Shown here one piece after another: positions 3,505-19,395 of a stretch of 64,000 bases of DNA. Every line of letters starts with the position of its first letter. Position 1 is the first letter of the stretch. The position numbers were made by a program, and so were the translations under genes. Below the pieces are notes generated by a model. The model saw only the letters and a list, made by a program, of their open reading frames with translations, had not been told where the DNA came from and did no database searches. Source of the stretch: Piedraia hortae CBS 480.64 (Eukaryota). Where the stretch lies: assembly GCA_010093745.1 (NCBI GenBank), contig MU005958.1, forward strand, positions 372,001 to 436,000, given 5' to 3'.

Positions 3505-3771
3505 GATACTCTGAACAATGGCGATTGTTCTGCACGTGGTGCTGATGGTACTCGGGTAAATCTCGGTACGAAGTCTAGCACACCGTGTTATCTATCAAGC
3601 CACACATAGTTATCAAATCGCATCCGTTTGCCACCATCAGGAATATATTAGCTTATGAGCCAGACTAGGTAGACTGAATACAGCATGGTACCCGTGTGCA
3701 GTAGTGCCAAACACAACTCTTCATCTATAGCTTGCACAATGCGTTTCGGCAGTGCCACATGATTGAAGATC

Positions 3772-4482
3772 CTATGTGAGCTTCTGCTTGATGAAGAACG
3801 CACGGAGATAGGTCAGCTGCCAGGCGCAAGTTGCAGCAAGAACAATCAACTGAATGATGGACCAGCGCACCACCCGAGCATTGACCGCCTCGCTCTGATC
3901 GCGAAACTCAGCCTCGCGTTCCCGCTGAAAGATCTGCTCTCTCCTGATATCTTGTAGCCTAAGCACAAGGTCTTGGACTTTGGATACAACCTGGTCCATC
4001 TGGCTCTTGTCTGAACTCTCAATCGACGACGTTTCCCCTATCGCCATGTCCAATTCAATCTTGACGCCGCCCGAAGGGGAGCCCGAGAAGAGAAAGCCAG
4101 ACGTCGCAGGTACATTGGTAGGAGTAAAACAGAGACGATGTGTACCCGATTCGGCGGCAGAAAATGCGAATTTCCCTTCGCTGGCGCCGCGCTGCGAGAC
4201 CACACGGTGGTCATTGTCAAAAGTCTCATCGGCAGTTATATGGATGCCCATTTCGGGGTTGTGAATGTACGAGCGCGACTGATCATTCCACTGTGTAGCT
4301 TTGTAGGTGCCTGGATTTGGTCAGCGTACCGGAAACCAGGGCTGTTTTGCTCTGTGCGTACCAACGACCATGGTTCCTTTGGCATACTCTTCCAGAAAAC
4401 ATTTTGGAGCGGATCCGTCCGTGTAGAAGTAGAGTGCCTCTGCTGAAGCTAGCAGCAAAGTGATTGCGGCGAATACTTGCAT
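3772..4482 (-). CDS. p24/emp24/gp25L family cargo receptor (Erp1-like)
   Basis: Signal peptide MQVFAAITLLLASAEALYFY, GOLD domain, REREAEFRDQSE coiled coil, TM, C-terminal FFIKQKLT. Intron 4311-4361. Confidence 0.92.
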
Positions 4483-4759
4483 TGCGCTGGGACGTATGTC
4501 CAAGACCTGTTGACTCGACGAAAGCGTGTTTAATTCCTAACCCTAAATACATGGTCGATGCAAATCGGTATGATACGCACAAAAACTGGAGATGCGGGCG
4601 TTGTCAAAGGGTGGTGACATGAATGATATGAGAAGAACTCTGAATTTTTTCCAATAAGCGAGTTCTGACTGGTACTTTTCTATCTCTCCCCCTCGCCGCT
4701 CATCTCATATATAGGGATACTTCTTCCAGCATTAATCTCAGGGTTTACATTTGCCACCG

Positions 4760-4972
4760 CTGTATACTCGGTTAGTGGTAGCTCCTACCAAAGATTTTTC
4801 AGCAAAGAATAAAATAAACAATCAGATCTTTTCAGTTTAGACCTTCATCCTCCCCAGAGGCTGCGTAGGCTGGGTACGCGACCATCGAAGGGGTTCTATA
4901 GTCAGACCTTTTACCAAAGTCTCATCAAAGTTTTCTAGTCGAAAGAAAGAAGAAAAGGGCTGATTCACTCAC
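4760..4972 (-). other. 213-nt spliceosomal intron of an apparently non-coding snoRNA host transcript
   Basis: Minus-strand donor GTGAGT (4972-4967), branch ACTAAC (4776-4771), acceptor CAG (4762-4760). About four times the local intron size. Flanking exons give only a 9-codon ORF (MLRGGKCKP). Confidence 0.75.
4820..4930 (-). ncRNA. Box C/D guide RNA with antisense elements to U5 and U2 snRNAs
   Basis: C box TTGATGA (4928-4922), guide CTTTGGTAAAAGGT plus D' CTGA (4905-4902), C'-like GGATGAA (4850-4844), guide TAAACTGAAAAGAT plus D CTGA (4825-4822). Lies inside a complete intron. Ends are approximate. Confidence 0.85.
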
Positions 4973-5178
4973 CGAAGCATCTGCTCAAGGGATTATTATT
5001 CTGAATGCTGTGACTGCCAATTGAGAAAGAGCGAAGTGGTCGGAGGTTTCCGCCAGTCTAACCTCATTGGATTTGACAGTCGCTAGCGCGCGATTGACCC
5101 CCGCGACGCGAAACACTACACCTACGAAATCGATCAACTTGACAGCATTCATACTCCACGTCTGCCTGTCAAAGATCA

Positions 5179-5658
5179 ATGATGGCCAACCTGGTAAGGT
5201 CTAGAAAAAAGCGCTTCCAGCTAAAGCTAAACTTGATGTTATCATAGCCTATACCCGTCGATCGCCTCCAGGAGATATGCGATGAGATTTGTCAGTCTGT
5301 CTTGGCCGACGCAACTGCCTACGACCACGTCGCAACTCGCTCCTGGAATGAAGCCATCAATCAGAAAATCCTTTCGGCGCTTGTTGAGTCGTCTTCGAAG
5401 CACAAGTTCTGCGTGAACACCATTATCATGCAACAAAATAGCCCTGGAAAGGAAGGCAATGAGCCCGGCGCTGCTGCTGGAACAGAACACGGCCCCGAGG
5501 GCATTCCACAACGTCCAACCGCCGGCCGTCGTGGCATGCACCACGTTAGCGGCGCGTTCTGGGACAACCAGCGGGACGGCATGTGGAACTACAAGTACGC
5601 GGGCGCAGAGCAAAAGGGAGTCGATGTAATCATTGCCATTACGTGGATTGCTCTATGA
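5179..5658 (+). CDS. Dynein light chain Tctex-1 type
   Basis: Exon 1 ATG 5179-5193, intron 5194-5247 (GTAAGG...TAG). WNEAINQKIL...HKFCVNTIIMQ...GAFWDNQRDGMWNYKY is typical of fungal Tctex-1. Confidence 0.9.
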
Positions 5659-5713
5659 TACAGAAGATTAACGAGCACTGGGTGTATAGAGTACATTGAC
5701 GAACTGACCCTCT

Positions 5714-15852: not shown

Positions 15853-18800
15853 ATGTCGGCGGAACCGGCTCAAGATCTGAGTCAATGGGGGGCTTCGGCG
15901 AACATGACTTCACACGGCCACAGTGTGTCACATTCACCCGCGGCGTGTGATGGACATGGTCTCTTCAACAATTATATCCGGGCTTTCTACCCGTACGGCC
16001 CATCTAGCAGCTCAACAATCGGTTACAATGGTTCGCTGACCATTGCGACTATCAAGCGGGGTGACTTGATTCTTGTTCACTCGGTACATGCCAGTAAATG
16101 GGCCGATGGAACAGTACTGCTTACGGGAGAGCGCGGATGGCTGCCCACAAACTACTGTGAGGCATATAGTCACGATTACTTAGCCAGCTTGTTGGACATC
16201 ACGACACAAATCTGGGATCTGTCTGACGCCAAAGACAGTGATGCTCTTGCCGTATTCGCCCGCCAGGACTTTTCGCGTGGTGTCATTGCAGGGGTACGCT
16301 ATTTGTTGGTTGAGTCTGGTTGCCTTCATAGCCAGTCGCAGCTGGTCTTGCAACACACAGCTATACGCAGAAAGCGCAAAAGCTTGCTTGCCGACCTGTC
16401 GTCTCTTAATCAGTTTGCAAGGCAGCTACAGCGCATGGCAGGTGAGCCCGTGTCAATGAAAGAGGCCCACACGCTTTTGGATGTCTTCACTGCCAGAGCA
16501 TTCAGGGTCGTGAGCAAAGCAGTCTCATTTATGGATGTGTGGACGTCGGAAACGAGCCCCAGTAGTCCTTGTAGTCCCATATCTGTTGAGATGGCAAACA
16601 CAGTTGCTGCAGTGACCTCGGTCACCCAATCTGAGCAGGTACAGACAGCGAACGAAGGCAAGGATATTGTTAGACCTGGCATGGATCCATTGCCCACAGC
16701 CCTTCAGTCTTGTCGTGGCCTCATGACCCACCGCATGTCTCGACGTGGGGTGAACTATCACGAATCGAAGACGATGGCATCGGAAGAGCTGGCCAAGGTG
16801 CATGAAGAATTCGTCAGGCATATTGGGACTTTCATCGGTCACCATTTGCGGTCGCCACCCTCGGCAGAATTGGCTGCGATGACAGACTGCCTAATAGTAT
16901 CAAACCAGAGGATGCTAGGTATTATGAGGGAAGTGGCCCGCCGCAGTCCGTCAACAGCAGATTCAATCAACCAACTACATGAGCAGCTTCAGGCTCGACT
17001 TCAAGACGTTTTAAATGCCACCCAAAAAGTTCGGGACACCGATACAGCCAACCTTCATTCCCAGAATGATAGGCTTACGCTGGCAACCCATCTCATTCGC
17101 GTTGCCAGCGATTGCGTGGACAAGGCTCGACCGACAATCGAGCAGATGGGAGATTTTGAGCTTTGCTGCGATCTAACTGGAAGATTGAACCAGGCAATCG
17201 GCGAATCGAATACTGCACCCGAGTCTACGGTGGCGATGCTGAATCTTCGATGGGGTCTACGACCTCTTGCAAACTCACCCAGAGAGAGTTTTCAGGAACC
17301 GGTATCGCCCCTTGAATCAGAGAGCTCACAAGAAACAGGCTGCTGTAACAATCAACTTTCTACGGATAAATCCCGGTTGTCACAGCGTCATAATGCCCCA
17401 ACTCCGAAGAGGGGTGTGCGAAGTTTGAGCCTTTGTCAGTCCGAACCATTATCTCCCGCAGTGACTACCCAATCTCCAACCCAATCTCCTACCCAATCCC
17501 TCGCCTTGACCGAGGGATCATTGTCGCCGTTTCCACAGCCCGAGCCCATCAGGCAATATGCTATTGCTACAGACCCCAGCGACTACGATTCTGGTCTCAG
17601 CACTCCGCTCGCGCCTTTCTGCCCAGGTCTGTTGGGCTATTTCACACATCCCTCGATGAACAGCCGTCAGGCAAGTGGTGGTACAGCTGACCGGCGCCGA
17701 CCCATGTCATTAATCAAGGCAGCAACTCGCAAAGACAGCACAACTGAATCGTTTGGATCTACGAATACGCACTGCAGCACCGGGCGCCTATCGACAATTT
17801 CCCATCAGTCAGATATTTCGACAAGAGCTACAACACCCGATGCGTTCCCAGAGCCAAGCCCCATGGAGGGAATGCGCATGGGTAGCATAACGAGTACCTC
17901 TCAGGCTAGCACGACCACACTCGAAGGAATCAACGAAGCTGGGACGGACCTGCTTTGCAAGACATTTGCCAATGAGCTGATCCTCAATAAGGAGGGTAAT
18001 GTTATTGGAGGCAGCCTTCCTGCTTTGGTGGAGAGATTAACATTGCATGATGCATCGCCTGATGGTCAGTTCATATCTGCCTTCTTCATGACATTCCGCA
18101 TGTTTGCGGACCCCCGTCAACTTGCTCAAGCATTGATCGATCGCTTCGACTATGCTGGTGACTCCAAAGCCGTTGGGGCGCCGGTCAGGCTACGAGTTTA
18201 TAACGTCATCAAAAGCTGGCTGGTAACTTATTGGAACTTGGAGGCTGATCACGACGCTTTGGGGGACATTCGCTATTTTGCCCTCCAAAAGCTGACCCCC
18301 CACTTGCCATCTGCGGGCGAGAGGCTGATGGGGTTGGTTCGAAAGCTGACAAGCGTCTACCAAACTGGAATATCTCAGTACCCATTCGTGTCTAACGTCG
18401 GTAAATGCTGCCCCTCCACAGTAGAGGAAAAAGATCAGATCACACCCGAGCCGGAATTGACAAAAAGCCAGCTTAACCTGCTGCGTACGGACATGGAGGG
18501 TGGAGCGACGTGCTCGGTGTTGGATGCAAGTCCGTTGGAGCTAGCGCGACAGATAACTCTGATGGCATCCAAGATCTACAATAGCATTCAAGCTGATGAA
18601 CTGCTAAGCCTGTCATGGAACAAGAAGGAATGTGAGCAAGTAGCAAATGTGCGGGAAATGTGCAGCTTTAGCACATCCCTGGCAAACATGGTTGGAGATT
18701 CCATTCTCAGCCCCGACGATGCCAAGAAGCGTGCGCTGGTGATCAACCAGTGGGCCAGGGTAGCCACTCACTGTTTGGAACTGCACAACTACGACTCTGT

Positions 18801-19395
18801 TATGAGTATCGTCTGCACCATTAACCTCACAACAATTCAGCGCCTTAAGCGGACATGGGATTGCGTTTCGCGCAAAACCAAATCATATATGGAAGTCCTC
18901 AATAAGGTAACAGATTGTTCATCCAATCATAAATGGCTGCGCAGCCAGCTAGAAGATCCCACGGCACCATGCATTCCCTTCCTAGGCATTTACTTGACGG
19001 ACCTCACGTTCCTACACGAAGGATATCCCAAGACACGCGACCTGGGAGATCAAAAGGTCATAAATTTTGCAAAATACATGCGCATGGCAAGCGTGGTTTC
19101 GCAGCTGCAACGCGTTCAGGTGGATTACAAACTGCAAACCGTGCCGGAAATACAATCTTGGGTCGAGAAGCAATTGCGGCGAATGCGCGAGTGTCGCGAG
19201 GATGCAGATACATCCTTTTACAGACGTAGTTTGATGCTCGAGCCGAAGCAGGATGACCCGCGCCGACCGAGCGTGGCAGTCAACGGTGATATCGATGGTG
19301 GCGCTGGCAGAGGAAGTGAGGGACGGCCACGAGTGTCTGGAGGGAAAGAACGATTAGAAGCGCTTTTTCGGCTTGGAGGTGTCTCGCAACGATAA
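15853..19395 (+). CDS. Ras-family guanine nucleotide exchange factor (SH3-REM-CDC25)
   Basis: N-terminal SH3 (WADG...GERGWLPTNYC), REM (GGSLPALVERLT...FFMTFRMF), CDC25 domain (PLELARQIT, PCIPFLGIYLTDLTF, INFAKY). Confidence 0.92.
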   Translation: MSAEPAQDLSQWGASANMTSHGHSVSHSPAACDGHGLFNNYIRAFYPYGPSSSSTIGYNGSLTIATIKRGDLILVHSVHASKWADGTVLLTGERGWLPTNYCEAYSHDYLASLLDITTQIWDLSDAKDSDALAVFARQDFSRGVIAGVRYLLVESGCLHSQSQLVLQHTAIRRKRKSLLADLSSLNQFARQLQRMAGEPVSMKEAHTLLDVFTARAFRVVSKAVSFMDVWTSETSPSSPCSPISVEMANTVAAVTSVTQSEQVQTANEGKDIVRPGMDPLPTALQSCRGLMTHRMSRRGVNYHESKTMASEELAKVHEEFVRHIGTFIGHHLRSPPSAELAAMTDCLIVSNQRMLGIMREVARRSPSTADSINQLHEQLQARLQDVLNATQKVRDTDTANLHSQNDRLTLATHLIRVASDCVDKARPTIEQMGDFELCCDLTGRLNQAIGESNTAPESTVAMLNLRWGLRPLANSPRESFQEPVSPLESESSQETGCCNNQLSTDKSRLSQRHNAPTPKRGVRSLSLCQSEPLSPAVTTQSPTQSPTQSLALTEGSLSPFPQPEPIRQYAIATDPSDYDSGLSTPLAPFCPGLLGYFTHPSMNSRQASGGTADRRRPMSLIKAATRKDSTTESFGSTNTHCSTGRLSTISHQSDISTRATTPDAFPEPSPMEGMRMGSITSTSQASTTTLEGINEAGTDLLCKTFANELILNKEGNVIGGSLPALVERLTLHDASPDGQFISAFFMTFRMFADPRQLAQALIDRFDYAGDSKAVGAPVRLRVYNVIKSWLVTYWNLEADHDALGDIRYFALQKLTPHLPSAGERLMGLVRKLTSVYQTGISQYPFVSNVGKCCPSTVEEKDQITPEPELTKSQLNLLRTDMEGGATCSVLDASPLELARQITLMASKIYNSIQADELLSLSWNKKECEQVANVREMCSFSTSLANMVGDSILSPDDAKKRALVINQWARVATHCLELHNYDSVMSIVCTINLTTIQRLKRTWDCVSRKTKSYMEVLNKVTDCSSNHKWLRSQLEDPTAPCIPFLGIYLTDLTFLHEGYPKTRDLGDQKVINFAKYMRMASVVSQLQRVQVDYKLQTVPEIQSWVEKQLRRMRECREDADTSFYRRSLMLEPKQDDPRRPSVAVNGDIDGGAGRGSEGRPRVSGGKERLEALFRLGGVSQR

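Follow-up and report, generated by a model that had tools for sequence, protein, structure and literature searches.

A putative double-guide box C/D RNA for the U5 and U2 snRNAs in Piedraia hortae and its long-form relatives

scaRNAs direct the modification of Pol II spliceosomal snRNAs and are recognized by Cajal-body localisation and its signal, either a CAB box or a GU-rich element. Among the vertebrate scaRNAs, U87 and U88 (SCARNA5 and SCARNA6) are composite C/D-H/ACA RNAs. Human U5 carries Gm37, Um41, psi43, Cm45, and psi46, with scaRNA5 and scaRNA6 as the guides for Um41, and human U2 has a known site at Um47, for which scaRNA28 is listed as the guide (PMC7960923). U87/SCARNA5 guides modification of U5 at position 41 and also functions at that position in yeast cells, while 2'-O-methyls are absent from all snRNAs of S. 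cerevisiae itself (PMC5733568); the methyl sites in U5 and U2 are therefore not universal in fungi.

Box C/D guides that methylate snRNAs are already known in fungi, the example being CD29 of N. crassa, whose U2-Am31 modification was confirmed by primer extension (PMC2780460). The same catalogue describes 55 box C/D RNAs, and the snRNA sites in its Table 1 are only U6-Am47, U5-Am62, U2-Gm183, and U2-Am31, none of which matches the sites considered here (PMC2780460). The A. fumigatus study, in its main account, reports no guide for U1, U5, or U6 and assigns Afu-191 to Am32 in U2 (PMC2377427), and the fission-yeast set, as described in the body of that paper, has one U6 site only (PMC4138321). 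Predictions for U1, U2, and U5 are given for T. rubrum; among those tabulated none falls at the present sites, unless the "U2: Um43" of TRnc_3573 is one of them renumbered (PMC3890542). The running text of "The fungal snoRNAome" mentions neither scaRNAs nor a U5 target, and its tables or supplements could list such a family (PMC5824354). In the literature searched, some supplements of which may list one, neither a fungal guide for U5-U41 or U2-U47 nor a fungal composite scaRNA was found, nor was a mapping of the U5-U41 and U2-U47 methyls in a filamentous fungus. Two published RNAs could be orthologues of the RNA described below: Afu-514 of A. fumigatus (AM921937), an intergenic orphan with a length of 105 nt, and TRnc_3573 of T. 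rubrum (KC353276), which is intronic and 95 nt long. Within Rfam 15 and the fungal snoRNA lists named above, the family of the RNA described below is uncatalogued.

The RNA was found in a window of 64,000 nucleotides of P. hortae CBS 480.64, to which all positions refer. The feature is real, lies in a transcribed region, and is conserved. It is probably a double-guide box C/D RNA for the equivalents of U5-U41 and U2-U47, derived from a longer minus-strand transcript; which RNAs it targets in P. hortae, its maturation into a stable small RNA, and the methylation of the two sites are predictions.

Anatomy and genomic setting of the candidate RNA

The minus strand between 4927 and 4822 reads as a complete box C/D anatomy in the order C-D'-C'-D, enclosed by a 4-bp terminal stem (Table 1). 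All parts of the RNA fall within 4934–4815, and its size would be 106 nt from box to box and roughly 118 nt with the terminal stem. The boxes and the stem that mark the class are all present, namely boxes C and D brought together by a short terminal stem and the internal D' and C' boxes, with two departures in detail. The base preceding the C box is a U and not the purine of the class consensus (RUGAUGA), and the C' box is off consensus by one departure in whichever register it is read, either as GGATGA (4850–4845) or as TGAAGG (4847–4842), the register that aligns with TGAAGA and TGACGA in relatives. The folding energy of the RNA is no better than that of shuffled sequences (z = −0.54), as is usual for the box C/D class. 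The earlier note on this DNA had described the C-D'-C'-D architecture on the minus strand; both the architecture and its coordinates were correct, as were the reverse complements of the two guides quoted there.

Table 1. Positions of the candidate RNA, its parts, and the surrounding features in the window
Feature	Position	Strand	Basis and remarks
5' strand of terminal stem, AAAC	4930..4933	minus	Pairs with GTTT 4819–4816, with a 2-nt spacer on each side; co-varying stems at the same place in homologous loci
Box C, TGATGA	4922..4927	minus	Sequence; invariant in the alignment of relatives, but part of the search pattern
D' guide, ACTTTGGTAAAAGGT, 15 nt	4906..4920	minus	Predicted antisense to U5 loop 1; position 5 is 4910; pairing by hand
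Box D', CTGA, perfect	4902..4905	minus	Sequence
Internal spacer, 51 nt	4851..4901	minus	Predicted fold: hairpin of CCCC 4893–4890 with GGGG 4855–4852
Box C' region, GGATGAAGG	4842..4850	minus	Sequence and alignment of relatives; register ambiguous
D guide, TAAACTGAAAAGAT, 14 nt	4826..4839	minus	Predicted to pair with U2 directly beyond the branch-point-binding region, on its 3' side; position 5 is 4830
Box D, CTGA	4822..4825	minus	Sequence; invariant in the alignment of relatives
3' strand of terminal stem, GTTT	4816..4819	minus	Pairs with AAAC
5' splice-site-like GTGAGT	4967..4972	minus	45 nt upstream of the C box; regex scan; RNA contig passes through without a joint
Branch-point-like ACTAAC (4776–4771) and CAG (4762–4760)	4760..4776	minus	45 nt behind the D box
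emp24/GOLD-family gene, downstream	3648..4482	minus	PF01105, E = 4e-38; ATG 4482–4480, intron 4360–4310, poly(A) end 3648
Tctex-1-family gene		plus	PF03645, E = 1.6e-15

The RNA sits between two divergent genes, the emp24/GOLD-family gene on the minus strand and the Tctex-1-family gene on the plus strand. Its earlier description as apparently intergenic calls for refinement: the locus also bears intron-like signals and is covered by an RNA contig. The flanking signals outline a predicted 213-nt intron (4972–4760), and should the RNA lie in the 5' leader of the emp24/GOLD gene, the transcript of that gene could be its host. Of the 14 relatives introduced below, 13 have CTRAY...YAG at 57–70 nt behind the D box, the contig of the fourteenth ending too early. 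That a branch-point-like signal recurs close behind the D box, in the window RNA as in the relatives, suggests an intron-encoded family, and on the strength of these signals and of the relatives the window RNA is itself predicted to be intron-encoded. Studies on the importance of snoRNA position within host introns are cited in PMC2780460. Elsewhere in the window, a RasGEF ORF has its nearest Atlas protein clusters in fungi, most often in Ascomycota, although on very few records; together with introns of 51–54 nt, this is in keeping with an ascomycete.

Two public runs contain this stretch. Over 3600–5700, one of them gave an identical DNA contig and is probably the source of the sequence; from the other, a single RNA contig of 4959 nt covers 3648–5700, including the locus. 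The RNA contig skips 4310–4360, the intron of the minus-strand gene, as well as 5193–5246, a GT..AG intron of the plus-strand gene, and at 3648 it terminates in a loose poly-T end. Because introns of genes on opposite strands have been spliced out and a poly(A) end is present, the contig represents RNA, and because it spans the locus, the snoRNA region is transcribed, the contig giving neither the strand nor the ends of the transcript. The contig is unbroken over 4361–5192, so that the predicted host intron is retained in it; contigs cannot exclude a spliced form.

Predicted targets in U5 and U2

In box C/D guides, an antisense element of at least 10 nt lies immediately before D or D', and the target nucleotide faces its position 5. 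The conserved loop I of U5 is UGCCUUUUACY (PMC6679479). Aligned by hand with this consensus, the D' guide forms a G-U pair, then eight Watson-Crick pairs, and then a G-Y pair; counted from the D' box, the pairs are U-G, G-C, G-C, A-U, A-U, A-U, A-U, U-A, G-C, and G-Y. Guide position 5 falls on the second U in the loop's run of U residues. If the G of the loop is numbered 37, then G37, U41, U43, C45, and Y46 match the human modification list in base identity, and since this numbering agrees with that list, the second U of the run is U41. The D' guide is, moreover, the one that the Rfam SCARNA6 consensus carries for U5-U41 (...GUAAAAGGUCUGA). The SCARNA6 guide and the loop consensus together support the U5-U41 equivalent as the predicted target of the D' guide, as had been proposed from the D'+5 rule with one terminal G-U pair. 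The element upstream of D' would thus pair with U5 loop 1 and place the methyltransferase on the second U, the equivalent of human U41.

Despite the shared guide, the RNA belongs to no Rfam family. At gathering thresholds nothing matched anywhere in the whole window, and the Rfam comparison that had been suggested for this RNA yielded no family for it in Rfam 15. A permissive search of 4500–5300 placed SCARNA6 (RF00478) first, with 16.4 bits and E = 0.022 against a gathering score of 68, and the only other match at E up to 10 was at the chance level (E = 6.9). The 5' end of the SCARNA6 model, UGAUGA..aUaGUAAAAGGUCUGA, holds the same antisense element and D' box as the window RNA. The alignment skips 192 of the 265 model positions, the spacer in the window being 51 nt long without a large internal region. 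Membership in SCARNA6 is ruled out by the sub-gathering score and the absent internal region; the RNA nevertheless has the U5 guide of that family. The long-form relatives score 16–23 bits against the same model.

For the D guide, the comparison was with nt 31–78 of S. cerevisiae U2 as printed in PMC4712673. Guide positions 2–11 form 10 contiguous Watson-Crick pairs with nt 45–54 (U45–U54), position 12 meets G55 in a mismatch, and positions 13–14 pair again, giving an AU-rich duplex with 3 G-C pairs in 13. Yeast U2 reads ...CAGUGUA; for fungal U2 the earlier note proposed ...CAGUUUA. Guide position 5 is opposite yeast U48. Positions 44 and 45 of yeast U2 correspond to vertebrate positions 43 and 44 (PMC5733568), and by this offset of +1 yeast U48 is vertebrate U47. 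The pairing with yeast U2, the numbering offset, and the conserved core of the guide (see below) support the U2-U47 equivalent, previously proposed from the D+5 rule, as the predicted target of the D guide. The element upstream of D would pair with U2 immediately 3' of the branch-point-binding sequence and direct the methyltransferase to the equivalent of human U47.

Conservation of the two guides and the inner domain of the relatives

Metagenome contigs were scanned with a pattern made up of a C box, a 3–8-nt gap, TRGTAAAAGGT, and CTGA, from which the U2 guide was excluded. The scan returned 47 loci. A further search downstream on the same strand found the U2-guide 12-mer (with up to 2 changes), followed by YCTGA, in 21 of the 47; these two-guide loci comprise 19 distinct sequences in 12 clusters, and at least four of the remaining 26 loci have under 500 nt of downstream sequence. 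By our own arithmetic, any one locus would have such a U2-guide match within 800 nt by chance with a probability of about 6 in 100,000. Since a scan that specified only the C box, the U5 guide, and D' recovered 21 loci that also bear the U2 guide, the combination occurs by more than chance.

In an alignment of the window RNA with 14 distinct relatives (15 sequences), CTGAAAAGA-N-CTGA is invariant in all 15, at a mean column identity of 33%. Guide positions 11–13, which face the part of U2 where yeast differs, are variable, yet in 13 of the 14 relatives aligned they hold nothing but A or G, so that pairing with U would persist. That the U5 guide and the C box are conserved in this alignment is circular, as the search pattern contained both; at the R position, where the pattern left the outcome free, all 15 sequences have G and never A. 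The flanks outside the C and D boxes pair at each locus with differing sequences, such as GCGTC with GACGC, GGTCTTC with GAAGACC, and GGCTGC with GCAGCC. Matched flanks (15 sequences) form contiguous terminal stems of 5.3 bp on average and mismatched ones (210 combinations) stems of 2.8 bp, and stems of at least 5 bp occur in 10 of 15 matched cases vs. 10% of the mismatched. Because the flanking stems co-vary, the two modules are the ends of one RNA, and the window RNA shares with the relatives both this arrangement of two guides and the pairing terminal stem. Guide conservation and compensatory changes, which the earlier note had named as signs to look for among homologs, were thus both found in metagenome relatives. 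No match was obtained in tblastn searches of the emp24 and Tctex-1 pieces of the window against the 47 loci with 800-nt flanks, and hence no synteny was seen. A scan of viral contigs with the 14-base guide gave at least 117 matches, which were taken as chance and are uninformative, and a scan of viral contigs and genome contigs for the conserved U2 motif found nothing.

The relatives are far longer than the window RNA, measuring 364–712 nt from C to D vs. 106 nt, and the window copy is the sole compact one among the 22 sequences with both guides. The earlier suggestion of one compact fungal RNA doing the work of two scaRNAs thus holds for the presence of both guides on one RNA; compactness is the exception in the family. 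Consensus folds of two groups (5 and 4 sequences) gave the same plan, in which a long irregular helix connects the stretch that follows D' with the one that precedes C' and encloses a hairpin A, a hinge, and a hairpin B, with ACA within 1–2 nt after hairpin B. The bridging helix and the enclosed domain account for 250–600 nt at the position of the window spacer. In the first folded group (5 sequences), 29 of 122 predicted pairs retain pairing through two-sided changes. Hairpin B with its ACA is present in all 14 distinct relatives; its 7-bp lower stem is compensatory in 6 of 7 pairs, and the conserved strands of its internal loop are ..YGGR.. (5') and CAANGGC (3'). A perfect ANANNA hinge was seen by eye in some lineages only. 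In two GC-rich groups that have no U2 guide, 15 loci show the same hairpin signature, CAANGG[C/G]-N5-9-ACA, 122–135 nt behind D', so the association of the U5-U41 module with this hairpin extends beyond the two-guide set.

Folded in this way, the inner domain of the relatives would be H/ACA-like, and any target assigned to it is likewise a prediction. It gave no match in Rfam at E up to 1, and the pocket of hairpin A, compared with snRNAs by eye, fitted nothing consistently across the groups. The pocket in hairpin B has AANGGC as its 3' strand, 14 nt before the ACA (counted by hand in L125, L130, L131, and L120, fungal-like), and YGG as its 5' strand. This pocket could fit U5 loop 1 and pseudouridylate the fourth U, the equivalent of psi43 and of yeast psi99. 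Position 43 of a U5 test substrate was modified in yeast by an unknown endogenous snoRNA (PMC5733568).

In place of the inner domain, with its bridging helix, two hairpins (A and B), hinge, and ACA, the window RNA has the 51-nt hairpin. The window RNA keeps the motif that follows D' as GATGGT (CATGGT in relatives) and GCAG...TGAAG before the D guide, and its helix is closed by a loop where the domain of the relatives would sit. The window RNA is a stripped-down member of the family, in which a short hairpin replaces the H/ACA-like domain. A more speculative reading makes it what is left of an ancient lineage of composite box C/D-H/ACA guide RNAs that corresponds to vertebrate U87/U88, and we regard such a history as conceivable and rather doubtful. 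Under that scenario, the 3' C'/D module would have gained a U2-U47 guide in fungi, and the lineage of the window would then have deleted the H/ACA core.

Alternative readings, significance, and comparison with known systems

As a member of its class, the RNA would accumulate as a stable small RNA assembled with fibrillarin/Nop1, Nop56, Nop58, and Snu13, and it is likely that one RNA here combines the jobs that vertebrates divide between scaRNA5/6 and scaRNA28. That short box-like motifs have come together by chance, without giving rise to an RNA, would agree with boxes of only 4–6 nt and with a fold that does not surpass that of shuffles, the latter being usual for the class; this explanation is effectively refuted by the recurrence of the architecture with both guides in 21 of 47 independently retrieved loci and by their compensatory terminal stems. 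It is also unlikely that the RNA is a genuine box C/D RNA in which one or both guides act mainly on rRNA, tRNA, or mRNA, the fit to U5 and U2 being secondary. Additional targets have often been reported for the antisense elements of fungal snoRNAs (PMC5824354), the U2 duplex is short and AU-rich, and the fit was judged on the U5 loop consensus and yeast U2. Against this, the D' guide is that of a vertebrate RNA with tested action on U5-U41, the D guide is invariant over exactly the stretch of U2 in which yeast matches, and both guides match positions that are methylated in humans and occur together in 12 clusters.

A decaying relic, in which the H/ACA-like core has been deleted and the remainder no longer works as a guide RNA, would explain why this is the sole compact copy among 22, why its C' box is off consensus, and why the host intron is unspliced in the RNA contig. 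Such decay is improbable for an RNA in which nothing has broken down in boxes C, D', and D, in either guide, or in the terminal stem, the U5 guide is extended to 14–15 nt, and the spacer closes into a hairpin, and in which the intron-like signals and the branch-point distance have been kept in a transcribed region. A working double guide for the U5-U41 and U2-U47 equivalents is accordingly the reading that we prefer, and probably the correct one.

The 2'-O-methyls of U5 loop 1 and of the U2 region adjacent to the branch-point-binding sequence sit at the heart of the spliceosome. Their genetics has been carried out mostly in vertebrate cells, with redundant scaRNAs, because budding yeast lacks snRNA 2'-O-methyls (PMC5733568). 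A short and apparently single-copy fungal gene with both guides would allow a clean test of Um41 and Um47 by deletion or guide swap. The U5-U41 guide module reaches well beyond vertebrates, and the long relatives are candidates for the first fungal composite C/D-H/ACA guide RNAs.

Several described RNAs resemble parts of this system. Vertebrate SCARNA5 and SCARNA6 (U87/U88) have, like the window RNA, a box C, the element ...GUAAAAGGU, a D' box CUGA, and U5-U41 as the site, with the same G-U pair at position 1. The large internal domain of the long-form relatives is a further likeness to these two; in the SCARNA6 consensus, however, the 3' element differs, whereas the 3' guide of the window RNA is predicted to serve U2, and the window RNA is fungal and in an intron-like setting. 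The closest analogue of the long-form relatives is U85/SCARNA10, which has C45 and psi46 as its sites; the window RNA, in contrast, is without an H/ACA part. Vertebrate SCARNA28, compared by its listed target only, guides Um47 of U2, the same predicted site (PMC7960923), and differs in that the window RNA joins the U2-U47 guide with a U5 guide in one molecule. In kind and size, N. crassa CD29 (SCARNA9-like) is similar: this fungal box C/D RNA is encoded in an intron, has two guides and a length of about 100 nt, and methylates a spliceosomal snRNA; its sites are U2-A31 and 5.8S-A42 (PMC2780460), whereas those predicted for the window RNA are U5-U41 and U2-U47.

Transcripts and other features around the window RNA

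At the locus of the predicted dual-guide box C/D RNA, the single RNA contig from X2, a public sequencing run, spans window positions 3648-5700 and continues past 5700, linking the minus-strand emp24 mRNA with the plus-strand Tctex-1 gene. The transcripts of this divergent pair must overlap, or else have been merged by unstranded assembly. On the minus strand, just past the downstream edge of the predicted host intron of the window RNA (4972-4760), Rfam shows weak similarity to snoZ221/snoR21b (14.4 bits, E = 6.9; gathering score 44). No canonical C or D box was seen by eye in this stretch, and the match is probably due to chance. Elsewhere in the window, an intronless 1180-aa ORF is similar to Cdc25-type Ras guanine-nucleotide exchange factors (RasGEF_N and RasGEF clusters).

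Coordinates of features in the window and of related RNAs in metagenome loci (L-numbers)
Feature	Position	Strand	Source
emp24 mRNA	intron 4310-4360; poly(A) end 3648	minus	X2 RNA contig
Tctex-1 gene	intron 5193-5246	plus	X2 RNA contig
snoZ221/snoR21b match	4635-4701	minus	Rfam
RasGEF-like ORF	15853-19395	plus	
Long-form relative	L118:789-1214		
Long-form relative	L125:411-837	minus	
Long-form relative	L153:438-838	minus	
Long-form relative	L146:789-1219		
Long-form relative	L154:619-1006		
Long-form relative	L119:405-838	minus	
Long-form relative	L130:789-1219		
Long-form relative	L136:75-507	minus	
Long-form relative	L131:789-1180		
Long-form relative	L123:321-838	minus	
Long-form relative	L128:789-1318		
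Long-form relative	L137:789-1524		
Shorter box C/D-like RNA	L143:795-893		
Shorter box C/D-like RNAs	L164, L151, L121/L150/L160		

Long-form relatives with both guides

The long-form relatives, whose C and D boxes bound a length of 364-712 nt, carry at their ends the same U5 and U2 guides as the window RNA, and their interior comprises a bridging helix and two hairpins, A and B, with ACA directly after the second. This inner part, for which an Rfam search (E up to 1) returned no match, is an H/ACA-like domain, and the long-form relatives are therefore possibly composite C/D-H/ACA RNAs of fungus-like organisms.

Alignment A3 compares L125:555-636(-) with the corresponding sequence from 13 other loci. 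In it, both strands of hairpin B's internal loop are conserved: the 5' strand carries YGG and the 3' strand AANGGC. The leading A of AANGGC lies 14 nt before ACA in L125, L130, L131, and L120 (four copies, counted by hand) and 11 nt before it in L126; L120 and L126 belong to the GC-rich groups described below. Judged by eye, these strands could form short candidate duplexes with U5 loop 1, pairing with its GCC.UU and CC in the region of the fourth U (psi43 equivalent).

The U5 guide in other RNAs

The shorter box C/D-like RNAs share the window's U5 guide and differ in their 3' guides; the extended U5 guide of L121/L150/L160, CTTTGGTAAAAGGT, is identical to the window's, and the U2 guide of this group may be located past the 800 nt of sequence examined. 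L143 has, on the opposite strand, a weak SNORD94-like match (Rfam; 22.6 bits, E = 0.2).

Two groups on GC-rich contigs (59-68% G+C; group 1: L126, L132, L135, L139, L145, L147, L148, L155, L162, L163; group 2: L120, L140, L152, L156, L159) contain the C box, U5-U41 guide, and D', followed 122-135 nt after this module by a CAAAGGC...ACA hairpin motif, and have no U2 guide within 800 nt. On this evidence, the U5 module combined with the CAAAGGC...ACA hairpin seems to be older or wider than the set carrying both guides.
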